A stretch of 64,000 nucleotides of DNA from an uncultured cyanobacterium (GCA_963718615.1 OY970368.1:3584001-3648000); one strand, 5' to 3'. Counted from the first letter of the stretch, positions 1 to 14,038 are shown. Notes: generated by a model from the sequence alone, not told the origin. Made by a program: numbers and translations.

Positions 1-621
1 GCCTACCCGAATAATCTCAAAGGCCCGCCGAAAGAAATAAGCCACCAAATCCGCATTGCCATGGGACTCTGGATAGCCTTCCTTCAAATAGTCCAAATAG
101 CCTTCCGCGTTGCCATTGATGGTTGTGTTCTTTCCTGCAAACGGCGGATTCCCCACGATCGCATCAAACCCGCCATTCTCCCGAGCAAACACCTCCGGAA
201 ACTCCACCTCCCAACTAAACGGAACCACCGGCTTCTCCCGCTCCCGCAACTGCCCCGCGATCGCCACCATCCGCTCCGGCTGCGATCGCACCACCTGGCT
301 ATACTCCGACACCAACAATTCCCGATCCTTCTTACTCTTGCCAAAACCATCGAAGGTTGCCGCGATCGCCACATCCCCCTGCATCCGCACCTGCAACAAC
401 TTCGCTTCCGCATCCTGCCACTGCCGATACTTCAAATCCGCATCCCCATCCGACAACGTATCCCCCGACTGAATCTTCGACCTCAACACCGTCGCCGCCA
501 AAATCTGCTCCTGCCCATACTTCATCAACGGCAAATCCTGAATCGGGTCCCGCCCAAAAGCCACAATCTTCTTCCGCGTCAGCCCCACCAACAAATCCAC
601 ACACTTAAATGCATGGTCCAT
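1..621 (-). pseudogene. 5'-truncated second copy of the N6-adenine methyltransferase catalytic region; open frame runs off the window
   Basis: Manual translation from ATG at 621: MDHAFKCVDLLVGLTRKKIVAFGRDPIQDLPLMKY...FDAIVGNPPF...AYFFRRAFEIIRVG. It is collinear with the C-terminal part of ORF 5034-7823, lacks the SAM-binding motif I (DLAMGSAAF), and KCGDSL is changed to KCVDLL. Confidence 0.85.
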
Positions 622-634
622 AAATGTAAATGGC
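1..634. repeat. Direct repeat, copy 2 (partner 5211-5844)
   Basis: By-eye alignment at offset 5210: 7 mismatches in 1-540, then about 18 mismatches in 541-634; homology ends near 634. Confidence 0.95.
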
Positions 635-698
635 GGTAGTCCTCTGGCGGTAAGGACTGCACCGCTTCGACAAGGGATTCTACGACTTTGGTGTTCAT
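579..698 (-). pseudogene. Truncated N-terminus of a DUF433-type antitoxin paralogue, fused out of frame to the methyltransferase copy
   Basis: ATG at 698 gives MNTKVVESLVEAVQSLPPEDY, matching MSTKFAESLAEAVVALPKEDY at the start of 4594-5028. Similarity stops at about 636, where methyltransferase homology begins; TGA at 579-581. Confidence 0.8.
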
Positions 699-756
699 GG
701 GCTTTAAGTTGAGAACAAAGGAGGCGATCGCTATCTGCTTCAGAGAAGTTAAGCGG

Positions 757-1608
757 CTAATTTCCTCCGTTTAGCTGCCTGAGATAATTGATAAAAGCAA
801 TCTTTTCTTCATCAGTCATCTCCCGACGACTATTCTTCTGATAGGTTTGCTGAATATGCTGTTGTGCCTGTGGAATATCCCAGCCTGCAAGCTTCATTTC
901 AATCCGAATTTGCGCATTAAGTGACAACTCAATCACACCAGCAATGAGTTTCCAGCAGGGTTTAGGAGGGCCAGTCCAGTCATCAAATTCATGTGGCAGG
1001 CTCAGGCTCAGGGTAATTAGGCAGGGGCCTTCTGGAACAGAACCCTGATCCAACTGATGCAACAAGATAGTATCAGTGAGGGTGAGTTTATTAAAAGACA
1101 AGCCATTTCTCATAGAAAAAGATCCTTTCCATTGCGTCCCACCATTGCGTCTTCGGGAAGAAATAATTTCGAGTTTATCCGTATATACAAGTTCTAAAGT
1201 CTTACGGTCAGGAAATGATAAGGCTTGCAGATCAGCAATCGGAACATATTTATAGGAGTTGTGGAGAATTGGTGAGCCGAAGTTTATAAATTCGACAACA
1301 TCGTCAACACTTGCTTTTCGCACGAATGTCCAATCACCAGTCAGAATTGAGCGATTTTCACATTCAAAGTCAAAGTCTGGCCCTGTTGTATCTAATGGGA
1401 TTTCCAACACATCCAGTAATTCAACTTCAACAAGCGTGAGCATATTGCCATCATCAATTACGGGCGTCGCACTAGGGACTCTACCGTCTTCAGGATGTTC
1501 ATCAGAAACAGGTCGAATCCATTGCCCTGATGCAGGTTCAATGCCAGCAACGCATCGTTCGCTGTACTTGGCGGAATTGGCCAAGCAAATAATTTGAGTA
1601 AGGCCCAT
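757..1608 (-). CDS. Dual-OB-domain family protein with a short C-terminal helical extension
   Basis: N-terminal IICLANSAKYSERCVAGI..WIRPV and later LSLS...CWKLIAGVI are typical of this family; follows two DUF488 genes in an apparent operon. Confidence 0.7.
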   Translation of the reverse strand: MGLTQIICLANSAKYSERCVAGIEPASGQWIRPVSDEHPEDGRVPSATPVIDDGNMLTLVEVELLDVLEIPLDTTGPDFDFECENRSILTGDWTFVRKASVDDVVEFINFGSPILHNSYKYVPIADLQALSFPDRKTLELVYTDKLEIISSRRRNGGTQWKGSFSMRNGLSFNKLTLTDTILLHQLDQGSVPEGPCLITLSLSLPHEFDDWTGPPKPCWKLIAGVIELSLNAQIRIEMKLAGWDIPQAQQHIQQTYQKNSRREMTDEEKIAFINYLRQLNGGN

Positions 1609-1623
1609 GATTTAATACCAAAC

Positions 1624-2070
1624 TTAGAGATGATGAATATCGATGCATCCCCATTTCTCATTCAAATACTCGGCAACCAGGCGTCTGTGGCAGTGATGCG
1701 GCTTGGCCTCGCTACAAAGTAAGCAGCTACTATCCACTAAATCGGGTGACAAAACTTTTTCAATTTCACGTTTGTTCATCAGATCAATGAATTGGCTCTC
1801 ATATATTTGCCATTCACCTTTCTGCTTCTTAAAGGTGTCAAGGATATCTTTAGTAGGGGCTAACTCGGGAATATGGACATACTCAATATTCCCAATTTCT
1901 TTTAGAAAATAAGCGAGGTCGTCGCGCTTAGAGAAACCTGCGAGCTGGGAAACGTTATTCAAGCGCGTATCAATTACGCGACGAACCCCAGACTTGAGTA
2001 GCAGCTCAAAAAACTGTTGGGCTGTTTTTTGGGTAAAGCCAATCGTGAATAGGTCAATGGGTTGAGTCAT
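1624..2070 (-). CDS. DUF488 family protein (short type)
   Basis: LFTIGFTQKTAQQFF, VIDTRLNNVSQLAGFSK, CLLCSEAKPHHCHRRLVAEYL; ATG at 2070 preferred to the upstream TTG. Confidence 0.85.
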   Translation of the reverse strand: MTQPIDLFTIGFTQKTAQQFFELLLKSGVRRVIDTRLNNVSQLAGFSKRDDLAYFLKEIGNIEYVHIPELAPTKDILDTFKKQKGEWQIYESQFIDLMNKREIEKVLSPDLVDSSCLLCSEAKPHHCHRRLVAEYLNEKWGCIDIHHL

Positions 2071-2746
2071 GGTTGCGTTCAACGTAGGCAATACGATCGC
2101 CCTGACGGGTGTAAGCCTCTTGGATGGCCTCTGCTAGAGAGAGCGGTTTGAGGACAGCGACAGAATGATCGGATATCGAATTGCTGGTAGAGCTATGAAA
2201 CAAACTCAGTTGGGCTGGTTCTGGTGCTTCAATAGGTTGACCGAGGGCATCTGCCAACCCATTTGCTCGGAGCAGACGTTCTTCTAAATGCTGATGTGTC
2301 TCTAGCTCGCCATTGTGCCAGATATGGTTGATGTCTAGGGAGAAGGGCTTTAGATGTTGGCAAACTAAAACAGCGCGATGGCAAGTAAGCGGATCTTTTT
2401 CCGCACACATGAGCGCTACATCGAACTTTTGGCTACCACTGATGACACGATCAATACCTTGAGCAAAGGCACCAGTAGCGGCGATGCGCTCATATAACGC
2501 TTTCCCATCTACATAGCAGCTTTCATCATCAGGACGGGCTCCCAGCTCGCGCCCAAGAAACACGTAACGAATGCCAGCTTTTTGGAGAGCATCTTTCAAA
2601 GGCTTTTGGCAGAAGTGAGGCATGTAGCGGCTATAGGGGGTAGACCGAACATCCGCTAGAGCGGTTACCTCATGCTGCTTGAGCAGGGCAATGAAAGTGT
2701 CAATATCATGATTGGAATGACCAATCGTGTACAACTTGTTTGACAT
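2054..2746 (-). CDS. DUF488 family protein (long type)
   Basis: LYTIGHSNH, DVRSTPYSR, ELGARP, ALMCAEKDPLTCHR motifs. Confidence 0.9.
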   Translation of the reverse strand: MSNKLYTIGHSNHDIDTFIALLKQHEVTALADVRSTPYSRYMPHFCQKPLKDALQKAGIRYVFLGRELGARPDDESCYVDGKALYERIAATGAFAQGIDRVISGSQKFDVALMCAEKDPLTCHRAVLVCQHLKPFSLDINHIWHNGELETHQHLEERLLRANGLADALGQPIEAPEPAQLSLFHSSTSNSISDHSVAVLKPLSLAEAIQEAYTRQGDRIAYVERNHDSTH

Positions 2747-2779
2747 GCTACGGGTTGGGAGGGACTGCCTATGGCCTCA

Positions 2780-2785
2780 ATTATA
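2780..2785 (-). promoter_or_regulatory. Putative -10 box of the DUF488 module
   Basis: Perfect TATAAT on the minus strand, 34 nt upstream of ATG 2746; no clear -35 box. Confidence 0.4.
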
Positions 2786-2882
2786 GGGAAGTTGCATAGC
2801 AGAAAAGATTTAGCTAGAGTTAAGATCTGAGCTGCTGATGAATCTACGGAGGCGGGTTTGGAGGGGGATCGTTGGACGTATT

Positions 2883-4214
2883 CTAGTCATGGTCAAGTAA
2901 TCCTGGAATAGTCGGAAAGTCAGGGTCGGGGGCTGATTTAGTCCGCTTAGTTTTGCTCTTGGTGGATGTTCCTTTTTGAGAAACCTTCTTCGCCGCCTTG
3001 TGCCCGAGCACCTCTTCCTCGTGGCGGGTTTGGTTGAGGTCGAGGAGGCGGGCGAGGATTTCGTCGTGGATGGCTTCGGGCCAGCGGTAGCGCCAGGGGA
3101 GTTTTTTGCGTTTTTTGAGGCTGGCTTGAATCTGGTTGTCGAAGGTGGCGGCTTCGGCGGGGTCGGCCCAGTGGAGATCGCCGGATGCGATGCGGTCTTG
3201 GAGGTTGGGGGGGAGGTTGTCGGTTTCGATGTCGAGGTAATCGAGGGCGAAGCCGCAGGGGATGTGGCCTTGGTCGTCGGTTTCGAGATGTTCGGTCCAG
3301 CCGTAGGCGGTGAGGACGGCTTGGTCCATTTGGCTGTGGAGGTCGCGGAGGTGGTGGATTTCGGGGTCGGTTTCTTGGGGGTCGTGGAAGCGGTTGTAGG
3401 TGTCGGTGAGACCCTGGTTGTTGCGGATCATGAGGGCGGCGCGGTAGTCGTAGTAGGCTTTGCCGATGGTTTCGAGGGTGGGGTCGGTTTCCCAGTTTTC
3501 GGGGAAGGGGAAGGTTTCGAAGCAGTCGGAGGGGGTGTAGCGGAGTCGATCTTCCAGGGATGAGCCAAAGAAGCGTGTCCAGATTTCGTGGGGGCGGGAT
3601 TGTAGGGCGCAGAAGGCTGAATATGTGTCGAGAGCGCAAACGATCAGAGCTTCAGAAAAAACCATATTTGGGAGCACAAAGGTCAGTCCCCAATTTGGCT
3701 GATGGCGAGAGATGACTAATACCCGATCGCAAGTTGCGATCGCTCTATACAAAGCAATTCGTTTCTCGCAAAAATGCCACCAAAGACGACGATATATTTC
3801 TCGTTTATCTAGTAATCTTTGAGGCTTAACTTTCGCTTCTACGATCGCCATCAACTCCGGCCATCCCCGCGCCTCCTCCTCACTCATCTCGCCAAAGTTA
3901 ATTACATAGCGTCGATGCTCGTGGGTTGGACTACCATTTACCTCAGAACCACCAATGTAAGGGAAAATGCGTTCCTGATTCTTAGGATTTTCCGCAATCA
4001 ATCGCTCCATTTCGGCGAGGCTTGTCGCTTCCGGATTCGTATCATCAAACGTAAATCCCATGCCTAAGACAATGCTGTCTTGAAAACTCTTTTCCGCATT
4101 GGCCAGCAGCACTTTCGGGTTTTCGTGACCGCCCTTGGGAAACAGAAACGCGGTGATTTTTTCGACGGGTTGGCCGTCGAGAATAATTTCGGGTTGATAT
4201 GGCATTGAAATCAT
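2883..4214 (-). CDS. Target-recognition and C-terminal half of a type IIG/IIL (MmeI-like, DrmMI-like) methyltransferase
   Basis: RIFPYIGGSEVN, RYVINF, LQSRPHEIW..FGSSLEDRLRYTPSDCFETFPFP, LRDLHSQMDQAVLTAYGW, DEILARLLDLN are typical of MmeI-like TRD and C-terminal regions; ATGA overlap with the upstream toxin gene. Confidence 0.85.
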   Translation of the reverse strand: MISMPYQPEIILDGQPVEKITAFLFPKGGHENPKVLLANAEKSFQDSIVLGMGFTFDDTNPEATSLAEMERLIAENPKNQERIFPYIGGSEVNGSPTHEHRRYVINFGEMSEEEARGWPELMAIVEAKVKPQRLLDKREIYRRLWWHFCEKRIALYRAIATCDRVLVISRHQPNWGLTFVLPNMVFSEALIVCALDTYSAFCALQSRPHEIWTRFFGSSLEDRLRYTPSDCFETFPFPENWETDPTLETIGKAYYDYRAALMIRNNQGLTDTYNRFHDPQETDPEIHHLRDLHSQMDQAVLTAYGWTEHLETDDQGHIPCGFALDYLDIETDNLPPNLQDRIASGDLHWADPAEAATFDNQIQASLKKRKKLPWRYRWPEAIHDEILARLLDLNQTRHEEEVLGHKAAKKVSQKGTSTKSKTKRTKSAPDPDFPTIPGLLDHD

Positions 4215-4597
4215 CTAATTAGCTTTACGTCATACTGATCGAAGACCTTATCCACACTCACAAGTCCGATATCTTCAACCATCGCCTGAGCAATGATCAA
4301 GCGGTCAAATGGATCGCGATGATGGAAAGGTAACGCTGATACTGTCTTTAGATGCTTTATTTCAATGGGTAATAGAGTGATTTTGTTTATCCTAATTTGC
4401 TCGTTCAAAAACGGTTGAAACTCTTCTTCTAAAGATAACTTTCCAACGCTCACCTTAATTGCAATTTCCCATATACTCGCAATGCTTAGCAAAATATCAA
4501 CCTCAGATTCCAATAGCCTTCTGGTGGTAGAGTCTAGCTGCGGGCTGCGGGCAATAAACCATAGGAAAATATGAGTGTCTATTAATACGCTCATCAC
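4211..4597 (-). CDS. vapC: PIN-domain (VapC family) toxin
   Basis: LIDTHIFLW, SIASIWEIAIK, HHRDPFDRLIIAQA, SVD acidic PIN motifs. Confidence 0.92.
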   Translation of the reverse strand: MMSVLIDTHIFLWFIARSPQLDSTTRRLLESEVDILLSIASIWEIAIKVSVGKLSLEEEFQPFLNEQIRINKITLLPIEIKHLKTVSALPFHHRDPFDRLIIAQAMVEDIGLVSVDKVFDQYDVKLIR

Positions 4598-5028
4598 ATG
4601 TAGTCCTTAAAATCCTCTAGAGGCTCATCAAAATCGGGAGACATCCAGATTTTTCCAGCAGCACTTCCGGCCTGCCGATACGATTGATTAGGCTGATCCA
4701 GTTCATCCCAGTCGTCATTGTGCTGACTGACAATCTCTGCATCAATTTCAGCTTTATTCGCCTGATAGTAAGCTCGCATGGCTAAAAGATCGAAGCGAGT
4801 TAAGTCGGGATAATTTTGCAGTAGCTCTGCATCGTCCATCCCCTGATTTATAAAAGAAATCAGCAACCATACCGCAATTCGCGTATTCCGAATGCAGGCA
4901 ACACCGCCGACAACACCCGGCGTTTTACGAATCAATTTATTGGTAAGTGTCTCTTGGAATAAGTCATAGTCTTCTTTGGGCAAAGCCACTACAGCCTCAG
5001 CTAGCGATTCCGCAAATTTCGTACTCAT
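4594..5028 (-). CDS. Antitoxin-like protein: DUF433 domain with a DUF2281/VapB-like C-terminal tail
   Basis: KTPGVVGGVACIRNTRIAVW...YPDLT (DUF433) and RQAGSAAGKIWMSPDFDEPLEDFKDYM tail; ATG at 5028 with GGAGGG upstream; ATGA overlap with the PIN gene. Confidence 0.8.
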   Translation of the reverse strand: MSTKFAESLAEAVVALPKEDYDLFQETLTNKLIRKTPGVVGGVACIRNTRIAVWLLISFINQGMDDAELLQNYPDLTRFDLLAMRAYYQANKAEIDAEIVSQHNDDWDELDQPNQSYRQAGSAAGKIWMSPDFDEPLEDFKDYM

Positions 5029-5033
5029 ACGCG

Positions 5034-7823
5034 CTAATTTCCCTCCTTGAACACATGCACCACACTCACCACCACCGCTGCTAACCCCGGCCACTTGTAG
5101 CGCCGGGTCGCATTGTAAATTATCCCCCCATTTTGGCAGACAAACCGTAACCCCGTGCTGCGCGTGTCGCCCTGGGCGATCGTATTCGTCGCAATCAATC
5201 CATAGGCTCCACCCACCCGAATAATCTCAAAGGCCCGCCGAAAGAAATAAGCCACCAAATCCGCATTGCCATGGGACTCTGGATAGCCTTCCTTCAAATA
5301 GTCCAAATAGCCTTCCGCGTTGCCATTGATGGTTGTGTTCTTTCCTGCAAACGGCGGATTCCCCACGATCGCATCAAACCCGCCATTCTCCCGAGCAAAC
5401 ACCTCCGGAAACTCCACCTCCCAACTAAACGGAACCACCGGCTTCTCCCGCTCCCGCAACTGCCCCGCGATCGCCACCATCCGCTCCGGCTGCGATCGCA
5501 CCACCTGGCTATACTCCGCCACCAACAATTCCCGATCCTTCTTACTCTTGCCAAAACCATCAAACGTTGCCGCGATCGCCACATCCCCCTGCATCCGCAC
5601 CTGCAACAACTTCGCCTCCGCATCCTGCCACTGCCGATACTTCAAATCCGCATCCCCATCCGACAACGTATCCCCCGACTGAATCTGCGACCTCAACACC
5701 GTCGCCGCCAAAATCTGCTCCTGCCCATACTTCATCAACGGCAAATCCTGAACCGGATCGCGCCCAAAGGCCACAATCTCCTTCCGCGTCAACCCCACCA
5801 ACGAATCGCCACACTTTAGCGAGTGATCCACAAACGTAAACGGCAAATCCCGCGCCAACGTCACCAACCACAGTGACAACTTCGCCAAATTCACCGCAAA
5901 GGGATTCTTATCCACCCCATACAAACAACGCTGCGCCACCAACCGCCGCGCATACAACAACGGTTCCACCGCATCCGGCACATCCCCCGGCATCCCGTGA
6001 TAATCCCAAGCCGCCACCAACCGCTCCGCCAACTGCCGACAAACCTCCACCAAAAAGGCAGCCGACCCCATCGCCAAATCACAAACCTTCAGCTCCAAAA
6101 TCTGCTCCGCCGTCGGCTGCGCCCCCAACCGCTCAAAAATAGGCCGCAACGTCGTCTCCACAATCGGCTGCGTCAACTTACGCGGCGTATAATGCGACCC
6201 CGTCCGCCGCCGCTCCTCCCCCGGCTGCAAATACAACGCCCCCGGCATCAACACCTGCAATGTCCGCTCCGACACCCGCCGCTCCAGCGCCGCCAGAATA
6301 TCCGCAACAGTCTCCGCCTCCTTCAACGCCGTCGCCCCCTTCCCCGACAGCGTCAGCTCCCCCGCCTCCTTCAACCACTTCGCCCGGTCCTTCGGCTTCT
6401 GGGCCAGCAAATCCTCCAGATTAATCACCACATCCTTCGGCTTCACCGCAATGGACTGCGCCTTAGCAATCTCCACCTCATAACCCATAATCGCCTCATA
6501 CACCGAGCCGATCTGCTCCACATCCAACGCCCGATAACTCAGCCGCTCCCCATTCAAAATCAGCAGCTTCTGGAGCATCCGGTAGATGACGCCGTCAGCA
6601 ATGCGAGGAATCTCTCCATTCCCCTCCAAAAACGCATACTCCGCCGGATCAAACAATTGCCCATGCCGCGCAGGCAAATAAGCCTCATAGCTCCCACCCC
6701 CGTCATACACCAGCCGAAACAAACTCAACAGCCAAGCCCAAGCCCCATAGCGATCTTCCATCGTGTCGTGGAAAGCACCATCGTCATCGCGCAGTTTTTC
6801 ATACAACCCCGAAACCGAATAATTCCCCTGATACACCGCATCATCCGGCATCAGCCCCTGGTCCTCCGCATACAGCAAAAACACCAGCCGCATCAGCGTC
6901 GTCAACAGCCCGCCATAGACATGCTGCGGATTGGCCTCGGCTAAAGCCTTCAGTTCACTGACCTGAGCCTCACCCTGCCGATCATCCCGCTTGGCATCCG
7001 CCGCCTGAAAGCCCCGCAACAACTCCCACAGCGCATCCAACACCTGCTCCGCCAACTGCGTCGAAACATTCGCCTGGTAAGCCCGACTCGCCTCTAGCAA
7101 CTTCGGCAACGTCCGCTCCCTCGGCGCATTCCACAGCCGATCCGCCCCCAGCAACATCTCCAGCGCCCCCAAAATCAGCCGCCCCGGCACCTCCGTCATC
7201 GCCTCAATCGGGAACGTAATATGCCCGCTCGACTCCCCACTGGGCGCATAAACCAACCGCAAAGCAACCCCATTCCACAAGATCCCAATGGGAACATTCA
7301 CCCCCTTCAACAGCCGCTCAAACTTCTGCTGCGGACTCGCCTTCCAGCCGCCTGATCCACCCTGGCTCCCCGCATTCGGATCTTCCCCATCCAAATCCCG
7401 CCCCAGGGGCACCACCTTCACCAGCAGCAAATAGCCCTCACTATCCAGGTCCACCACCCCATACTGGGGCCGCAGCACCTCGCCATAATCCGACAGATTC
7501 ACCTCCAGCGAGGCAGGCAAATCCGCCTCCGCCACCACATCTGCCGCCTCCCACTCCAGCACCTGCTCCGCAAAGGGCAGAAACTCCGGCACGTACGTTA
7601 TGGGGCTCTGCTCCTTGCCATCTCGCTGAACCTCTGCCGCCTGAAGCCCAGGCAACAGCTCCTGCTGCACCAACCCCTGCAACACCGGCTGCAACCGCAA
7701 CGCACTGCTCTTATCCACAAAGGCCTGCTTATCCGCCAACGCCGGAGGCGACACCACAAGACCCTCCGGCTGCAACAGCCCCAGCCATTCGCGATGTAGA
7801 TATTGCTCGTTGTCGTAGGCCAT
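5034..7823 (-). CDS. N6-adenine DNA methyltransferase, DrmMI/type IIG-like, lacking its TRD
   Basis: VEQIGSVYE, GSHYTP, motif I CDLAMGSAAFL, LYGVDKNP, motif IV GNPPF, LIATNTIAQGDTR; stops right after AAVVVSVVHV. Confidence 0.92.
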   Translation of the reverse strand: MAYDNEQYLHREWLGLLQPEGLVVSPPALADKQAFVDKSSALRLQPVLQGLVQQELLPGLQAAEVQRDGKEQSPITYVPEFLPFAEQVLEWEAADVVAEADLPASLEVNLSDYGEVLRPQYGVVDLDSEGYLLLVKVVPLGRDLDGEDPNAGSQGGSGGWKASPQQKFERLLKGVNVPIGILWNGVALRLVYAPSGESSGHITFPIEAMTEVPGRLILGALEMLLGADRLWNAPRERTLPKLLEASRAYQANVSTQLAEQVLDALWELLRGFQAADAKRDDRQGEAQVSELKALAEANPQHVYGGLLTTLMRLVFLLYAEDQGLMPDDAVYQGNYSVSGLYEKLRDDDGAFHDTMEDRYGAWAWLLSLFRLVYDGGGSYEAYLPARHGQLFDPAEYAFLEGNGEIPRIADGVIYRMLQKLLILNGERLSYRALDVEQIGSVYEAIMGYEVEIAKAQSIAVKPKDVVINLEDLLAQKPKDRAKWLKEAGELTLSGKGATALKEAETVADILAALERRVSERTLQVLMPGALYLQPGEERRRTGSHYTPRKLTQPIVETTLRPIFERLGAQPTAEQILELKVCDLAMGSAAFLVEVCRQLAERLVAAWDYHGMPGDVPDAVEPLLYARRLVAQRCLYGVDKNPFAVNLAKLSLWLVTLARDLPFTFVDHSLKCGDSLVGLTRKEIVAFGRDPVQDLPLMKYGQEQILAATVLRSQIQSGDTLSDGDADLKYRQWQDAEAKLLQVRMQGDVAIAATFDGFGKSKKDRELLVAEYSQVVRSQPERMVAIAGQLREREKPVVPFSWEVEFPEVFARENGGFDAIVGNPPFAGKNTTINGNAEGYLDYLKEGYPESHGNADLVAYFFRRAFEIIRVGGAYGLIATNTIAQGDTRSTGLRFVCQNGGIIYNATRRYKWPGLAAVVVSVVHVFKEGN
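5211..5844. repeat. Direct repeat, copy 1 (partner 1-634), inside the methyltransferase gene
   Basis: Same alignment as for 1-634; the true left limit is unknown because copy 2 runs off the window. Confidence 0.95.
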
Positions 7824-7879
7824 GGTGATGATTCGGGGAACTTGTCAGGGAAACTCGGTCAGCATTCAGCAGAATTCGC

Positions 7880-8470
7880 TCAGCTCGGTTCGTTTGAGGC
7901 TGAGTCAAACACAATGTCTTCGTAAATGGCTTCGATGGGAAACGTTAAATCAACCGACTGAAGCTCAACCGAATCACCAGCTTGATAGTTGAGAATTTGC
8001 CAAGCATCCTGAGCCGTTCTGCGAAAGATTTCGATTGAGATCGCTTCTGAATTCACCAAAACGTACTCTTGCAGATTCGGATTTTGTCGATACATTCTGA
8101 ACTTATCGCCTCGGTCATAGGCCTCCGTCGAAGGCGAGAGCACTTCAATCACTAGGCAGGGATAGGTAATGAACTGCTTCGTTGTTTTATCACGCGGATC
8201 ACAGGTGACGCTGAGGTCAGGGTAAACATAGTCAGTTGAATTCAAAATGCTGACCCTAGCATCGGAATTGAGAACCTTGCAGCCGCTGCCTCGCATGTGG
8301 GCTTTTAGCACAGCGCCGAAGTTGATCGAGATTTCACTGTGATTAATCGTTCCGCCGCTCATGGCATAGACTTCACCGTTGAGATATTCATGGCGATGGA
8401 GCTGCTGTTCCTCCCAAGCGAAATATTCCTCGGGCGTTAATTTGGGAAACTTTTCTTTTGCGACAACCAT
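7880..8470 (-). CDS. Uma2 (DUF820) family PD-(D/E)xK endonuclease
   Basis: EYLNGEVYAMSGG, YPDLSVTCD, PCLVIEVLSPSTEAYDRGDKF, LQEYVLV; ATG at 8470. Confidence 0.92.
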   Translation of the reverse strand: MVVAKEKFPKLTPEEYFAWEEQQLHRHEYLNGEVYAMSGGTINHSEISINFGAVLKAHMRGSGCKVLNSDARVSILNSTDYVYPDLSVTCDPRDKTTKQFITYPCLVIEVLSPSTEAYDRGDKFRMYRQNPNLQEYVLVNSEAISIEIFRRTAQDAWQILNYQAGDSVELQSVDLTFPIEAIYEDIVFDSASNEPS

Positions 8471-8570
8471 GATTAATCCCCTGTTCGTTGAATCAACTCG
8501 TTGAAACTCAACTGACACCTCAAAATTCTATCGGTGTAGCTCCTGAATCGGTTTGGCACTGATTCAGCTC

Positions 8571-11500
8571 CTAACTCGTCACCGGCCAGAGATAGACCAG
8601 TCCCACCGGCTCCACCCGCGTTGCTTTGACCTGGTAAGCCTTGCGAATCCGCTCCGGCTCCGTCTCAATTTCTTGCGCCAACATTTCCAAGCGCTTCTCC
8701 CAGTGCCGTCGGTCCGAGGCGAGCTGACGCTTCTCCGATTCCGCAAAGGCCAAAGTCATCTGTTGAGAATCCTGGTCCGTCTTCTGCTGCTGGCGACGAA
8801 TGCGATCGCGCTGCTCCTCCAGCAACTGCTTCATCTCCTTGGCTTCGCGATCGCCCCGCTCCGCCAGCTTCTTCTCGGCCTCCGCCGTCAGCGTCTTAAC
8901 CATGTCATCCAGATGAGAGGCCAAATCCTTCACATCCTGGGGGGCCGACTGTTGCAGCCGCTGCCGAACAGTCTCCGGCACATCCCGCAAACGAGGATTG
9001 GCTAAGGACTCTTCCAGGATTTGAAGGACTTCTCGCGTGGTGCGATCGCCCAAGACCTGCAAGCCCTCCCGCGCCTCCGGCGACCTCCACCGCGCCACCA
9101 CCGACACCACCTCATCATGGAGCCGCGCTGCCCCATCGCCATAGAGCGACAGCCGCCCCAGCATAATCACCCGAGGAATCGCCGTATCGGTCAAGCAAAC
9201 ACAGGCCCGCGTCAAATCATCATGGACAAAGCCCTGGGACAGGAAGCGCCCCAGCAGCCGCTGCACCAGCCGCTGCTCCAGATGCAAATGCACCGCCTCC
9301 CCATCCAGCGTGCCGGAATCGCGAAAAATCACCGGACGAATGGAAGCTTCTTTACGCCATTCCCACAGCTTCTGCCCCCGCTGACGCGGAGCCCGCAGCG
9401 TATCCAGGGTCGCCGCCCAGGTGGGGTCATTGCCCAGGCGCTCATCCAAGGCCGGAATCTCCCAACGAGCCAGGTCTGGATTGTCCAATGCCTCCTGGCT
9501 CGACATCGGTGCCAATGGTTGAGCACCTAGCACTTCCAGCGAGGCTGAGAGGGCATCGCGAAAAAAGCTGTCCTTGAACCCCAGCCATTTGTGGGAGCTG
9601 TCGAGGATGTTTTGCAGTTGCTTCTCTTGCTCTAGAAGGGCCTGGTGGCGATCGCGCATGACATCCAGTTCTTCACTGATCACCTGTCCCTTATCCAGCG
9701 AATCCCCATCCGCCTGATCCGCCTGGCGCAGCGCATCTGACAGCCTCGCCTCATCCTCCGCCCGAATGCCGTTTTTCAACAGCTTCGAAACAGTCTTCTC
9801 CACCACAGGCGACAGACTGCCTAGCTCCTCATGGATGGTCTTGGTTTTCTCCACCAGCACATCCAGCACCCGGTCCTCCGCCCGCTGGGGATAGACAAAA
9901 TAATGGCAGTGAACCACCTTGGCCTTCTGCAACTTCCGGTCAATGCGGCCATTGCGCTGCTCCATCCGGCTGGGGTTCCAGGGCACATCGAAGTGGAACA
10001 ACTCCGAGCAATAGTTCTGAAGGTTCACCCCCTCCCGCGCCGCATCCGTGGCAATCAAAATCCGCAGGGGATGCTTGGCCGGGTCCGCATTAAAGGCCGC
10101 TTTGATCTGCTCCCGCCGTTCATCCCCCATACCGCCATGGAAGGTGCCAATGCGATTATCCGCATCATCGGAGCCTTGGATTAACGCCTCCAGTTGCTGC
10201 TGCAAATAGCGCTTGCTGTCGGTGTACTCCGTGAAAAATAAGACCCGCTGGTGATTCCACTGGGCTCCCGTCTCACCCAGGTTAGGGCAAAGATTCGCCT
10301 TCAACCAAGCCTTGAGATAGGCAATGCGGCCATCGGCTTGGTGTCGTGCTGCGATCGCAATCTGGGTCATCTCCTCCAGCAGTTCCAGCTCTCGTTCGGT
10401 CACACCGCCGCCGCTAAACTGAGTCGCCGCTGACATCTGGGCATCTTCTTCCTGTTCGATATCGGCTTCATCGAGATCCGCGCGATCGTCATCGTTCCCC
10501 GCCGCCTCCGCCAATAGCGAGAGCCTTCCCTGGACCAACCCAGGAGCGGCCATGGCCTGAGCCGGTCGCTCTACCGCCTGGCGCTTCATTGCCTGGCGAT
10601 GTACCCGCAGCGTCCGCGAAAACGCTTCAATCGACGACAGCAGTCGTTTCTGCAACGACAACATCACTAGCATCGCCGCTGCCCGAGAAGACGTTGTGGC
10701 ATCCTTGAGCCTGGCTTCTCGACAATTGCGATACTCCTGCAACAGCCGCGATAACACTAGCTCCGGCGCATCCTCAGGCAGGTTATCAATCCGCACCGCA
10801 ATCACCTCCCGCTTCGGGAAGTCCGCATTCTTAATTTCCCGCAAATCCTGCTTCAGCCGCCGCACCATCACCCCATCCAGCAGCGCCTTACTGCGCACCG
10901 GCACCCCTCGACAAAACCGCTGGGGGTCCAAAATCTCCAGCAGCGCTGCAAAGCTATTGGAATGGCCATTGTGGGGCGTCGCCGATAGAAACAGCCGATG
11001 CTCAAACATCGGAGCCAGCTCCCGCACCGTCCGCGTTAGCTGGGAATCCACCGCATATTTAGAACTGCTGGCCGGAGCCGCATTGTGGGCCTCATCCAAA
11101 ATCAGCATCGACCCCGCCGAAAGCTGCTGCCCCCCCTCGGTCAGCCAATCCCGCAGGGGTGCCGCATAGCTCTCATTGCGCAGCAGCGCATGGGAAATGA
11201 TGAAACGGTTATGGGTCTTCCAGGGATTGATACCATAGCCCCGCTCCCGCCGCCGCGCCGCCACAAAGGCCCGGTCATAAATCGTGAACGTCAAGCCAAA
11301 GCGGCTCTCCATTTCATCCTTCCACTGCTGCACCACAGACGGCGGACAGAAAATCACCACCCGCTTAATCTTTTGCCGCAGCAGCATCTCCCGCAGAATC
11401 AACCCCGCCTCAATCGTCTTGCCCAGGCCCACATCATCGGCAATGAACAGATTCACCCTGGGCATCCGCAGCGCCTTGCGCAGGGGCTCCAACTGGTAAG

Positions 11501-11888
11501 CCTTAACCTCAATCCCAGCCCGGTAGGGTGCTTGAAACAGGCGAGCATCGGTCGAGGTCACACAGTTCCAGCGCAGCGTGTGGAAATAGGCCGAGAAATA
11601 GCGGGGGTCATCAAACCCACGGCTCACCACCGAATCCCAAGTCGCAGCACTCAGCAACTGCGCATCAATCTCCCGCTCCCAAAACACCTCCAGCTTCTCG
11701 CCCTGGGCATCGTCTTCGACGCAGGCCAGGCTGACGAGGGTATCCCCCTCAGCATCCGCCGGGGGCGATACATTCTCCACGAGATATTGACGCGATCGCA
11801 CCCGCACCAGTCGTCCTGGCTTGAGTCCATCCGAATCTGCCCCTGCTGTCGCTGCTGTCCCAATTGCCCCGGTCATAGAGATCGCCAT
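8571..11888 (-). CDS. drmD: SNF2-like helicase, DISARM DrmD type
   Basis: PGRLVRVRSR N-terminus, IADDVGLGKT, LDEAH, LSATPHNG, ATDAAREGVNLQ, WNPSRMEQRNGRIDR; sits upstream of an N6 methyltransferase. Confidence 0.8.
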   Translation of the reverse strand: MAISMTGAIGTAATAGADSDGLKPGRLVRVRSRQYLVENVSPPADAEGDTLVSLACVEDDAQGEKLEVFWEREIDAQLLSAATWDSVVSRGFDDPRYFSAYFHTLRWNCVTSTDARLFQAPYRAGIEVKAYQLEPLRKALRMPRVNLFIADDVGLGKTIEAGLILREMLLRQKIKRVVIFCPPSVVQQWKDEMESRFGLTFTIYDRAFVAARRRERGYGINPWKTHNRFIISHALLRNESYAAPLRDWLTEGGQQLSAGSMLILDEAHNAAPASSSKYAVDSQLTRTVRELAPMFEHRLFLSATPHNGHSNSFAALLEILDPQRFCRGVPVRSKALLDGVMVRRLKQDLREIKNADFPKREVIAVRIDNLPEDAPELVLSRLLQEYRNCREARLKDATTSSRAAAMLVMLSLQKRLLSSIEAFSRTLRVHRQAMKRQAVERPAQAMAAPGLVQGRLSLLAEAAGNDDDRADLDEADIEQEEDAQMSAATQFSGGGVTERELELLEEMTQIAIAARHQADGRIAYLKAWLKANLCPNLGETGAQWNHQRVLFFTEYTDSKRYLQQQLEALIQGSDDADNRIGTFHGGMGDERREQIKAAFNADPAKHPLRILIATDAAREGVNLQNYCSELFHFDVPWNPSRMEQRNGRIDRKLQKAKVVHCHYFVYPQRAEDRVLDVLVEKTKTIHEELGSLSPVVEKTVSKLLKNGIRAEDEARLSDALRQADQADGDSLDKGQVISEELDVMRDRHQALLEQEKQLQNILDSSHKWLGFKDSFFRDALSASLEVLGAQPLAPMSSQEALDNPDLARWEIPALDERLGNDPTWAATLDTLRAPRQRGQKLWEWRKEASIRPVIFRDSGTLDGEAVHLHLEQRLVQRLLGRFLSQGFVHDDLTRACVCLTDTAIPRVIMLGRLSLYGDGAARLHDEVVSVVARWRSPEAREGLQVLGDRTTREVLQILEESLANPRLRDVPETVRQRLQQSAPQDVKDLASHLDDMVKTLTAEAEKKLAERGDREAKEMKQLLEEQRDRIRRQQQKTDQDSQQMTLAFAESEKRQLASDRRHWEKRLEMLAQEIETEPERIRKAYQVKATRVEPVGLVYLWPVTS

Positions 11889-11892
11889 AGTC

Positions 11893-13980
11893 CTAATCCT
11901 CCTCTGCTGCTGCTTCCAGGGCTTCCAACTCCGGATCCGTCAAAATATCCTCTAAAAATCGACTGGGATAGCCCGTCCAAGTCAGCAGGGCCTCATCCCG
12001 CGCCCGCGTCAGCCCCACATAGAGCAATTGCCGTTCCCGCTCCAGAATGTCCGTCCGCAATTGCTGGTCCTGAACGTTTTGCAACACCGACCGCAGCGGC
12101 AACTGCTCATCAGAGACATTGACCACAAACACCGCCTTAAACTCTAGCCCCTTGGCCCGGTGTAGCGTCCCTACCCGAACCCCCTCACCCTCGGCTCCGG
12201 TTTTACTCAGCAGTTGACTCTTCACCCTATTGCGCGTCAGGGCAGCCTGGAGCGGTTCCAATTCACCATTGGTCCGGCTAAAGACAGCTATCTCATTCAG
12301 GCTCAGGCCCTCCTTCTTCATCCGCTTAATTTCGCCACTGACATATTTCCACTGCTGGGCAGGCGTCTTGGCTTGATGCAGGGTGGGGTAGGGGCCTTTC
12401 AGCAAGCTCTTGGTGCCCTTGCGCTTCTCGCTGCCGCCATCCATGTCATCCCCTGTGTCACCTAAAAGACGGTCGGCAAAGCGGCGGATTTCTTCGGTGG
12501 TGCGGTAGTTGATCCGCAGGATGTGGGAGCGCCCCTGCACGTTCACCCCCAATCCCTTGAGGCTAAAGCGACCGCCATAGATACGCTGGCCGCCATCCCC
12601 CACCAGGGTTAGGGCATTGGGAGCTGGACCGGCGATCGCCCCCAATAGCTGGATCTCCTGGGGCCGCAAATCTTGCAGCTCATCCACCACCACCGCATCA
12701 AACGGGCTCTCTACAATGCCGGACTCCAGAAACTCCCTGGCCTGGCGACAGATTCCCGACCAATCCGCCTGCCCCTGGGCCTGAAGTGTTTTGAGAATTC
12801 GCTCGAAGATTGGCCAGACTTGCTCCCTGCCCGTCGTGGACAGGGGAAACCCTCTCCCAGTTCGACTCGCACTTTTGTATTGCTCCCAGGTCGTAATGCC
12901 CTGGTCTTGAATGATCGTGTCCCACTCCGTCAGCAGCATCGTCGGGTCTAGGGGGCAGCTGGGGAAATGGGCTTGTTCAAAAAGGGCTTGGAGCGCAGAG
13001 CGCTCAACAGCCTGTAGCTTTTGCCCCCGCCCTGTCGCCAGACTGAGTGCCTGCTTATAGACCGTACTGACTGTGATCAGTTTCTTTTCTCCAGCCGTGC
13101 AAAGTAGATCCAGACTGCGATCTAGGTTTTCGCAGAGCGTCTTAACATAGCTCGTCAGCAAGACCCGCTTGCCCTGTCGCGCCAAATGCCGGGCTCGATG
13201 GAGCGCAACCACGGTTTTTCCCGTGCCAGCCCCTCCTGTAATCTTCAACGGTCCCGAAAAATCACCGGTTGCCAGCTGCTGCTGAGAGGGATGTAAGAAA
13301 GCAATCCAGGTCTCCAGCGGTGCCTCCAGCATCCGCATCAAGTCGGCATTGTCATCTAGGACAAAGAAGCGGCGTTGGGTGTCTTGGCTCTCCGTTAAAG
13401 GCTGATCCGGCAAGAGGGGGATCGGGGGCGTGACGAGTTCGCCAGCCGCGAGATTAAGGAGGCGATCGCCCACATCCTCTGGCAAATCGAACACCACATC
13501 CAGTAGCACCGCTTCGGTCTTGATCTTACGTATCGTCGGCAACCAGGTTTCTGGCAACCCCAAGCTCACCAGATAGTCGTCTTTATGTTCATCAAAGAGA
13601 CCGGGAATCTTCGAGCTCCCGCTTCCCCAGTCCTGCACCTGCTGCTCCACAACCTCGGGTGAGGCCACAATTTGCAGGGCTCCAGTTTTGGAATGTCGAG
13701 CAATCTGCTTGGTCGTCGCCCAGTGGTAAGCCGCATCATGGTGGTCCGCATGGAGGACCGTCCAAGTCTCACCATCCTTGTAGACGATCGCCCTTAGCTC
13801 CTGGGAAATCCGGGCTGACCAAAGGTTTGGGTTCTTCGTTTTAGTCACCCGCTCCAAGCTCAAGCTCGGATGGGACGGGTTCTCCAAAAACTTGCTCAGA
13901 AACGACCAGACTTGCTTAGCCTCATTCGCTGCCAGCTTGGTCACGACCTTTGGCAGTGATTGATCAATCAGTACGGGCAT
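11893..13980 (-). CDS. UvrD-like superfamily 1 helicase with an N-terminal RelE/ParE-like domain
   Basis: GGAGTGKT, VDELQD, GDGGQRIY, LRINYRT, TLHRAKGLEF, LLYVGLTRARD; N-terminus LWSARISQELRAIV...ADHHDAAY. Confidence 0.85.
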   Translation of the reverse strand: MPVLIDQSLPKVVTKLAANEAKQVWSFLSKFLENPSHPSLSLERVTKTKNPNLWSARISQELRAIVYKDGETWTVLHADHHDAAYHWATTKQIARHSKTGALQIVASPEVVEQQVQDWGSGSSKIPGLFDEHKDDYLVSLGLPETWLPTIRKIKTEAVLLDVVFDLPEDVGDRLLNLAAGELVTPPIPLLPDQPLTESQDTQRRFFVLDDNADLMRMLEAPLETWIAFLHPSQQQLATGDFSGPLKITGGAGTGKTVVALHRARHLARQGKRVLLTSYVKTLCENLDRSLDLLCTAGEKKLITVSTVYKQALSLATGRGQKLQAVERSALQALFEQAHFPSCPLDPTMLLTEWDTIIQDQGITTWEQYKSASRTGRGFPLSTTGREQVWPIFERILKTLQAQGQADWSGICRQAREFLESGIVESPFDAVVVDELQDLRPQEIQLLGAIAGPAPNALTLVGDGGQRIYGGRFSLKGLGVNVQGRSHILRINYRTTEEIRRFADRLLGDTGDDMDGGSEKRKGTKSLLKGPYPTLHQAKTPAQQWKYVSGEIKRMKKEGLSLNEIAVFSRTNGELEPLQAALTRNRVKSQLLSKTGAEGEGVRVGTLHRAKGLEFKAVFVVNVSDEQLPLRSVLQNVQDQQLRTDILERERQLLYVGLTRARDEALLTWTGYPSRFLEDILTDPELEALEAAAEED

Positions 13981-14038
13981 AACCGGCAATATCTAAAAGA
14001 TGGAGAATGACCAGATATCAAACTGATATCCGAGGATT

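Follow-up and report, generated by a model that had tools for sequence, protein, structure and literature searches.

In an uncultured cyanobacterium (GCA_963718615.1), a class 1 DISARM defence locus straddles the left edge of the stretch of DNA analysed here, G000:C1:3584001-3648000, which measures 64,000 nucleotides (nt), lies within a single 6.1-Mb contig without N, and is hereafter referred to as the window. At this locus, the methyltransferase gene drmMI is separated from its target-recognition domain (TRD), a toxin-antitoxin (TA) pair stands at the split, and the 3' module, consisting of a truncated methyltransferase end, a different TA pair and a different TRD, is found a second time in tandem. 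The structure is best read, with a probability of roughly 60%, as a stabilised recombination product in which the TA pairs guard exchangeable specificity cassettes, and not as a programmed switch; the tandem module itself was most likely left by a recombination accident instead of a built-in switching device.

The split drmMI gene and its repeated 3' module

All five class 1 DISARM genes were found in their usual order and orientation (DrmD, DrmMI, DrmA, DrmB and DrmC, by PADLOC models). Those inside the window are without exception on the minus strand, and drmA, drmB and drmC were read to the left of position 1 in an adjoining stretch, L001, in which position 13806 corresponds to window -194; an initial annotation of the window had called the locus DISARM-like, a label that can now be made precise. 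The drmMI core (5034-7823, minus strand) encodes 929 residues that comprise an MmeI_N-like N-terminus and an N6-adenine methyltransferase with its NPPF motif, and no TRD (PADLOC PDLC02643, E 2.5e-268; Pfam Eco57I, MmeI_Mtase, N6_Mtase and, at 2.4e-6, MmeI_N). It is followed on the same strand by the antitoxin gene AT1 (4594-5094, with a likely start at the ATG at 5028, 5 nt past the drmMI stop; Pfam DUF433, 1.1e-18, and a DUF2281-type C-terminus, 1e-8), by the PIN toxin gene PIN1 (4211-4597; 128 residues; Pfam PIN, 3.5e-16, over profile positions 1-119 of 120), and by TRD1 (2883-4214), a stand-alone target-recognition subunit of DrmMI of 443 residues (PDLC02643, E 2.6e-115; Pfam MmeI_TRD). Downstream of TRD1, again on the minus strand, lies PDC-M45 (757-2746), a candidate defence operon of three contiguous genes (Pfam DUF488 at 2054-2746, DUF488 at 1624-2091 and DuOB at 757-1608; PADLOC M45B 2.9e-75, M45C 3.7e-71 and M45A 3.3e-21) with a GC content of 0.43-0.49.

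The second module then begins with copy 2 of the drmMI 3' end, an open frame of 271 residues (1-621 and on to window -194), and continues to the left of the window with the second DUF433 antitoxin gene AT2 (L001 13324-13809; 161 residues), the second PIN toxin gene PIN2 (L001 12933-13319; 128 residues; Pfam PIN) and the second TRD gene, TRD2 (L001 11549-12925; 458 residues), all of them on the minus strand. Both cassettes are tightly packed: the starts and stops of core or fragment, antitoxin, PIN and TRD genes overlap or lie 4-7 nt apart, for example, with a 4-nt overlap of AT1 and PIN1, an overlap of the PIN1 stop with the TRD1 start, and 4 nt between AT2 and PIN2. In a comparison with the DrmMI models of PADLOC, the core scores 1e-300, TRD1 1.5e-155 and TRD2 1.4e-158, beside E = 0 for DrmD with its own model. 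Because the core covers positions 4-981 of the 1347-position model PDLC02643 and the TRDs begin at 982 (TRD1, 982-1340) and 988 (TRD2, 988-1343), with the fragment at 706-985, DrmMI is split at the boundary between methyltransferase and TRD, and it is this split that the TA pair occupies; the MmeI_N, MmeI_Mtase and MmeI_TRD domains are divided over two genes with two genes between them, rather than joined in a single chain. Judged from its predicted genes, the locus belongs to class 1 DISARM, with DrmMI divided into the 929-residue core and a TRD encoded by a gene of its own, and with a TA pair in between.

The repeat that relates the two modules is direct, with an offset of 5210, as the initial annotation had stated: window 1-634 is the counterpart of 5211-5844, 304 nt are exact in a base-by-base comparison (5-308 = 5215-5518), few mismatches follow up to ~600, and the similarity ends at ~635-640. 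On its other side, this block A extends left of position 1 to about -110, giving a total of ~745 nt at ~97-98% identity. Its copy 1 (5100-5844) is the 3' end of the drmMI core, about residues 657-929 of the 929, a region that holds the NPPF motif without the N-terminus or the region of the S-adenosylmethionine-binding motif I (near residues 585-593), so copy 2 is indeed a headless but open frame, and the genes reported between the copies, namely the TA pair, the TRD gene and DUF488-DUF488-DuOB, were likewise recovered by Pfam and PADLOC. Block B, in the C-terminal half of the TRD (copy 1 at 3007-3607), has its partner in TRD2 left of the window, at an offset of 5304 and ~97-100% nt identity. 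Block A and the TRD gene each occur just twice in the genome as a whole. The length and identity of the repeat exclude chance. The truncated methyltransferase copy is read here as a scar of a recombination event and not as a working component. Between the copies of block A, 36 codons differ (23 synonymous, 13 non-synonymous), codons 105-204 are identical, and 15 of the 17 differing codons within 205-260 are synonymous; these mostly synonymous differences imply that copy 2 diverged inside a working gene, before it was truncated.

Homologues of the 271-residue fragment amount to 905 proteins of 149-475 residues at E <= 1e-20. Among the 120 listed of these, most come from short contigs (1-3 kb), on which genes are cut, or are the 3' remainders of upstream-broken genes (G204, G014), and they neither support nor exclude recurrent methyltransferase arms. 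A homologue of 299 residues from a complete Chamaesiphon genome, also among the matches listed, could not be placed in context. Upstream of its ATG, the fragment frame stays open for 45 codons (622-759), as far as the PDC-M45A stop and in the frame of M45A, which is probably chance.

The junction scar and the origin of the tandem

At the border of copy 2 that faces PDC-M45, the PDC-M45A stop codon (757-759) is followed 58 nt further on by an ATG (698-696) that opens 21 codons (636-698, minus strand), whose product shares 14 of 21 residues with the N-termini of AT1 and AT2 (E 4e-8 each), and at about 636-641 the sequence continues, in another frame, with methyltransferase codon ~656. Apart from AT1 and AT2, the 14-kb region has no other antitoxin-like match (this one has E 2e-6), and the out-of-frame fusion to codon ~656 indicates that a third DUF433 antitoxin gene was broken at codon ~22 and attached to an internal part of drmMI. 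The 5' edge of copy 2 thus has the appearance of an illegitimate, non-homologous end join, unlike the border of a purpose-built cassette. A candidate for a fourth antitoxin remnant at 2870-2929 was rejected as chance, the match being weak (E 0.23). In the spacer between PDC-M45A and the remnant, a cyanobacterial HIP1 octamer, GCGATCGC, stands at 724-731.

In the preferred explanation, an allelic 3' module, made up of the terminal ~0.8 kb of drmMI with a TA pair and a TRD unlike those of the first module, would have been joined in tandem downstream of PDC-M45. The simplest origin would be a one-sided insertion of a related DISARM allele, with a homology anchor on the drmA side and an illegitimate join on the other; alternatively, an unequal exchange between chromosome copies may have been followed by allelic replacement, a route that takes more steps. 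The two near-identical blocks could then serve as substrates for homologous recombination: crossing over within block A would remove 5210 base pairs (bp) with TA1 (AT1 and PIN1), TRD1 and PDC-M45, while a crossover in block B would remove 5304 bp with PDC-M45, the fragment, TA2 (AT2 and PIN2) and the TRD2 core, and either would leave a canonical single-cassette locus.

The initial annotation had assigned a different meaning to the repeat, namely that of a switch with a silent cassette, in which copy 2 serves as the homology arm and a regular, selected crossover loops out a 5210-bp circle, so that DNA specificity and accessory defence cargo are swapped together. Part of this proposal stands, for the crossover would indeed yield a normal locus (drmD, drmMI, TA2, TRD2, drmABC), the ~745-nt direct repeat is ~98% identical with an alternative TRD behind copy 2, and the exact tracts suggest past recombination between the copies; moreover, relatives with a single cassette show reassorted TA and TRD types, two-TRD loci recur in two further genomes (G014 and G331), and DrmMI is a known target of programmed inversion, as stated in the available part of one study (PMC9881135). 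However, the repeats are direct, so that a crossover is a one-way deletion, irreversible unless the non-replicating circle re-enters, and the repeat ends in a truncated antitoxin gene, at a junction that is accidental and out of frame. The two methyltransferase blocks share the minus strand with the two TRDs, in place of the inverted arrangement of shufflons, and the inverted repeats within 14 kb measure only 26-35 nt at 71-77% identity. No recombinase family was found by Pfam among the 18 proteins of the locus; in the genome as a whole, the tyrosine recombinase family PF00589 has five matches, the nearest ~170 kb away, and the serine recombinase family PF00239 has none. Nor is cassette 2 obviously silent: it lies upstream of drmABC in a tight same-strand array, which makes silence unlikely. 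A scan for promoters and terminators gave 6 promoter-like sites (9.3 expected) and 16 terminator-like sites (14.9 expected), numbers that have no bearing on whether cassette 2 is insulated. The TA pair that would be looped out is unrelated to the pair that would remain, a situation in which deletion should be penalised, and in G014 and G331 no methyltransferase arm stands beside the second TRD. As for the accessory cargo, PDC-M45 was present in none of 177 other DrmMI loci screened, which does not support its exchange together with specificity. A dedicated switch at this locus is consequently regarded as distinctly improbable, and the practical message is that so striking a repeat is better taken as a recombination scar than as a switch.

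An assembly artefact, by which two haplotypes of a culture would have been stitched in tandem via their shared repeat, has a very small probability. It would agree with the finding that no sequencing run holds the stretch, and repeats of 0.6-0.75 kb with divergent middles do resemble haplotype bubbles, for which a pair of parallel ~9.2-kb contigs in another genome (G110) offers a comparison. Nevertheless, the genome is one gapless contig, the unique junction between the antitoxin remnant and codon ~656 is not something that a repeat-collapse error can create, and the copies differ at 36 codons.

The two TRDs and the toxin-antitoxin pairs

A different TRD had been predicted to follow copy 2, and TRD2 was found in that place, behind the second TA pair. 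The modules compare as a mosaic: the methyltransferase blocks agree at ~98% of nt, the antitoxins share 59% of residues in their DUF433 part, which comprises the first ~106 residues only, and the antitoxin C-termini and the PIN toxins are unrelated (PIN1 and PIN2 are 23% identical at an insignificant E of 9.6). TRD1 and TRD2 are 86% identical overall; their nt identity is 97% in codons 21-44, 84% in codons 45-124 (23 synonymous and 8 non-synonymous differences), 63.6% in the core of codons 125-200 (16 synonymous and 34 non-synonymous), and 97.1% in codons 201-404, of which codons 222-301 are identical. The exact tracts of blocks A and B suggest gene conversion. The variable core falls within the MmeI_TRD match of Pfam, and residues 177-307 of TRD1 align to residues 762-883 of MmeI (chain 5hr4_C). 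Here, the counterpart of MmeI 806-810 is the same in TRD1 and TRD2, whereas that of MmeI 773-774 is Glu-Ala in TRD1 and Glu-Gln in TRD2. Positions 773-774 and 806-810 are those which we take to set specificity in the MmeI family; the MmeI residues that do so were reportedly described by Morgan and Luyten in 2009.

Each core is closer to that of another species than to its partner (TRD2 with locus L012, 72.8%; TRD1 with locus L026, 64.2%; TRD1 with TRD2, 59.3%), and both TRDs therefore look like live alleles. This bears on the proposal that the second module is a passively kept relic, in which only TRD1 works with the core while TRD2 and the fragment are functionless and decaying. The scar junction and the truncated methyltransferase copy would fit such a relic, as would the second TRD of G014, which is broken by a short repeat element and illustrates that extra TRDs can decay. 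On the other hand, TRD2 is an intact frame of 458 residues with every conserved block kept, the differences in codons 45-124 are mainly synonymous, the TRD2 core is nearer to L012 than to TRD1, its docking segment is conserved and is placed on the core by a structural model, and transcription of drmABC must run through or after TRD2; a relic is therefore held to be unlikely.

In the model just mentioned, the complex of core residues 520-929 with TRD2 was predicted with a score of 0.88 against 0.00 for the best control, where the mark set for this score is reached by 58 of 80 solved complexes and by 2 of 110 mismatched pairs. The model runs share at least 71% of contacts, and the predicted local distance difference test value (pLDDT) of the partner is at least 82. 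The modelled interface joins core residues 870-929 with TRD residues 6-37, a segment that is nearly identical in TRD1 and TRD2, and the docking surface is almost wholly contained in the repeated block; the pass may nonetheless reflect likeness to the solved single-chain MmeI, since core and TRD are halves of a split gene. With this qualification, both TRDs are probably able to use the one core and, by docking through their shared N-terminal ~35 residues, would probably allow two DNA motifs to be marked and read at once. The 271-residue fragment, if it is made, could speculatively bind TRDs as well.

In both pairs, a small antitoxin gene stands directly upstream of the PIN toxin gene in the layout of type II (VapBC-like) systems, with Pfam E values of 1e-16 to 1e-18. 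AT1 is a hybrid of a DUF433 domain, common with AT2, and a DUF2281-type C-terminus, and the same hybrid occurs in G014 (L007 9291-9758); in other species, the antitoxin paired with PIN1-like toxins is a short DUF2281 protein, kin of the AT1 C-terminus. The genome holds 14 DUF433 genes, and of the ~20 genes most like AT2 in 401 genomes from the same class, about half lie within 5 kb of a DrmMI TRD. Since either of the deletions described above would remove one of two unrelated TA pairs, addiction should select against deletion, and by analogy with other repeat-bounded segments, the TA pairs probably guard the TRD cassettes against loss. According to the available parts of two studies, TA cassettes kill cells upon their excision from chromosomal integrons (PMC13108822), and TA systems lower repeat-to-repeat deletions on plasmids (PMC6354349). 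Similarly, a preprint on a Serratia class 1 DISARM system, in the portion available, reports loss of the methylases without autoimmunity (10.1101/2021.12.28.474362), which implies that DISARM itself would not enforce the keeping of a TRD.

Several points weigh against a stabilised, guarded recombination product. No sequencing run holds the stretch (best share of sampled words 0.09, none reaching half), the tandem thus resting on the assembly, and no RNA run holding it is listed; the exact tracts could, moreover, be a cross-polishing artefact of the repeat in the assembly instead of gene conversion. The donor-insertion and unequal-exchange routes are indistinguishable without the parental alleles. 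TRD2, the fragment and the TA genes are known here as predicted genes, from sequence alone, and Pfam matches and sequence dissimilarity are the sole basis for the activity of the TA pairs and for their lack of cross-neutralisation. Post-segregational killing by chromosomal TA pairs is often weak or absent. Finally, the varied TA families found at one boundary in different loci could denote a permissive landing site for selfish genes, without any guarding, which is the plainer alternative. The TA, Uma2 and PDC-M45 genes of this locus have a GC content of 0.40-0.49 versus 0.54-0.60 for the DISARM genes (~0.59 beside Uma2), which is compatible with later insertion on the guarding and landing-site views alike.

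Related loci and comparison with known systems

The split state was surveyed in 80 unselected DrmMI loci of species-representative genomes, almost all of them cyanobacterial: DrmMI is fused in 61, fused with an in-frame insert in 2 and split in 12, while 5 have no core on the locus; with this query, DrmMI was found in none of seven genomes of the same family. Together with further loci chosen for a short TRD frame, the survey provides 18 other split loci, 16 of which have TA-family genes in the gap (the remaining two being L019, with no recognised family, and L076, with the gap unscanned). The families in the gap vary (DUF433-PIN, DUF433-DUF5615, DUF2281-PIN, unknown-PIN, MazF, UPF0175-DUF3368 and RHH-PIN), and a nineteenth locus, L012, is split by 105 nt only. 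On a tree of the 360 C-terminal methyltransferase residues with 78 rows, among which 14 added loci bias the sample towards split forms, the split state must have changed at least 10 times, well-supported branches leaving no alternative for at least 6 of these changes, and 18 of the 19 split rows fall in one half of the tree. Among 80 more distant loci on metagenome contigs (the nearest 74-75% identical), 72 are fused-like, 5, including the closest ones, have a gap of more than 200 nt, and 3 were not assigned; no two-TRD locus occurs among these 80.

Two further genomes, of other species, carry two TRD genes at a DrmMI locus, with an antitoxin-toxin pair ahead of each. In G014, the order is core, [DUF433-PIN], TRD, [DUF433/DUF2281, UPF0175, nucleotidyltransferase], TRD, [DUF433-PIN], drmA; the second TRD is broken by the short repeat element, and the TRD pair has a variable core with a 97% identical C-terminal block. 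In G331, a second complete TRD (L011 13557-14774) lies between drmA and drmB, behind a gene of 90 residues and a PIN gene. The methyltransferase fragment, having no counterpart at either locus, is peculiar to the genome studied here. Two MazF-type pairs are present at the G331 locus as well, along with an AbiEi-like gene that is either fused to drmA or next to it.

Four runs with a small share of the stretch were assembled as contigs, none of which covers the PDC-M45 part. A contig of 2438 nt from run X2, at a depth of 32, carries the methyltransferase block, AT1 and PIN1, followed by a TRD that resembles TRD2 in codons ~73-171 (19 differences in 296 letters); the contig spans 5406 bases of the locus with 102 letters between, a net difference of 5304, which is the TRD1/TRD2 offset. 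The contig accordingly represents a relative, ~93-94% identical, in whose single cassette a TRD2-like core goes with a TA pair of the TA1 type, and it shows exchange over evolutionary time, not switching within a strain. Joints in run X5 (2859 to 8272, side 34) and run X3 (2801 to 8120, depth 5) were too weak to count.

A wider proposal extends the guarded recombination product to a clade of cyanobacteria, in which the TRD would be a free-standing, exchangeable subunit that travels as a TA-TRD cassette, with a TA pair of any family driving expression and guarding the cassette. Such cassettes would be swapped, stacked and converted by homologous recombination at the 3' end of drmMI and the C-terminal half of the TRD, one core would serve several specificities, populations could reshuffle these, and the present genome would be an intermediate with two live cassettes. 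This proposal is tentative, the odds lying against it by a fair distance; if true, TA-TRD cassettes would form a counterpart to hsdS shufflons and integron arrays that needs no recombinase.

Three other features were noted at related loci. A second recurrent interruption of the DrmMI core, at about residues 607-619, adds 240-650 nt in five species (L007/L047, L051, L069, L064 and L104). In G014, a DUF559 endonuclease domain is found in the upstream piece of the interrupted DrmMI, and repeat elements of the GGGGAGAGGGG type, 83 nt long and in tandem, are located there. In G110, contigs C19 (L020) and C193 (L021), the ~9.2-kb pair mentioned above, have the same end positions and both carry the drmMI 3' end, a TRD, a DUF433 gene, drmA and drmB, with 86-88% identity in drmA/B and the TRD C-terminus and 67% in the TRD N-terminus and core; they are two loci or two haplotypes of one assembly.

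Class 1 DISARM was reportedly described by Ofir et al. in 2018 as drmD, drmMI, drmA, drmB and drmC. The present locus agrees with this system in its five genes, their order and orientation, and in a DrmMI that is an MmeI-like N6-adenine methyltransferase, whereas here two genes encode DrmMI and a TA pair stands at their boundary, the TRD module is doubled, Uma2 and PDC-M45 genes are embedded, and no drmMII was seen in the locus. Separately encoded specificity subunits are also a property of type I restriction-modification systems with several hsdS genes and of split type IIB enzymes (BcgI). As in these systems, one methyltransferase core could use alternative specificity subunits; unlike them, the TRD here is of the MmeI type, derives from a split single chain, is present once per subunit and has its gene coupled to a TA pair. 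If both TRDs serve one core, the locus would offer a simple route to multi-motif epigenetic defence, as well as a natural example of recognition modules of the MmeI family, whose recognition is presumably modular and engineerable, acting in trans. MmeI itself (PDB 5HR4) is a single chain with endonuclease activity, whereas the TRD here is predicted to be a separate protein and the N-terminal domain is only MmeI_N-like.

Variable DISARM specificity as such, including specificity switching of DrmMI, is already known: in the available part of their study, Milman et al. 2023 (PMC9881135) report that DrmMI, DrmMI-like type II enzymes and BREX PglX are subject to programmed inversion through inverted repeats, which is reversible and confirmed by long reads. 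Insofar as that part of the source allows a comparison, both cases have a partial second copy of the specificity-bearing 3' region beside an expressed gene, with conserved blocks around a variable part, and recombination between the copies would change specificity in either; in contrast, the copies here are direct, the TRDs are complete separate genes, no recombinase is nearby, and deletion is the only reciprocal outcome. As regards TA-stabilised arrays in integrons (PMC13108822) and on plasmids (PMC6354349), the likeness visible in the accessible portions of both sources lies in TA genes inside repeat-excisable segments whose excision frees the toxin, while the present locus has no attC or integrase, its cargo is a defence specificity subunit, and guarding is a conjecture. 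No description of a TA-split DrmMI or of tandem TA-TRD cassettes was found in the literature searched, which did not cover the supplementary tables of PMC9881135, and a search on DUF488/DuOB returned unrelated papers only. By that search, what appears new is a split DrmMI whose TRD has a gene of its own behind a TA pair, an arrangement present in many cyanobacteria and at times stacked in tandem; should these pairs indeed protect the cassettes, the part that TA systems play against deletion would reach from integrons and plasmids to defence specificity subunits.

The remaining genes of the locus are likewise all on the minus strand. The gene drmD (8571-11888) encodes an SNF2-type helicase of 1105 residues (PADLOC DrmD, PDLC02621, E = 0 over residues 20-1103; Pfam SNF2-rel_dom and Helicase_C). 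On the other side of the specificity modules, drmA (L001 7820-11359), drmB (L001 5937-7823; DUF1998/MZB) and drmC (L001 5118-5933; PLD) follow on one strand, with PADLOC E values of 0 for DrmA, 5.5e-81 for DrmB and 7.6e-121 for DrmC and with Pfam matches to Helicase_C, MZB and PLDc_2. Within window -4000 to 10000 (L010 1-14000), the sign of the GC skew flips between same-strand genes, from about +0.3 to +0.4 over drmA and the TRDs to -0.3 to -0.47 over the drmMI core and drmD. A UvrD-type helicase of 698 residues (11893-13989, minus strand) ends 4 nt short of drmD; its first ~230 residues have no Pfam match, it has NERD+UvrD (C3a187) and GajB-like hits in PADLOC, and it may add another defence gene to this island. 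Between drmD and drmMI, a putative endonuclease gene of the Uma2 family is inserted (7880-8518, minus strand; 212 residues; Pfam Uma2, 2.3e-42; PADLOC PDC-S03; GC 0.468), and Uma2-family genes of this kind lie within the DISARM loci of three species at different boundaries (window 7880-8518, L014 12572-13138 and L026 2788-4038).

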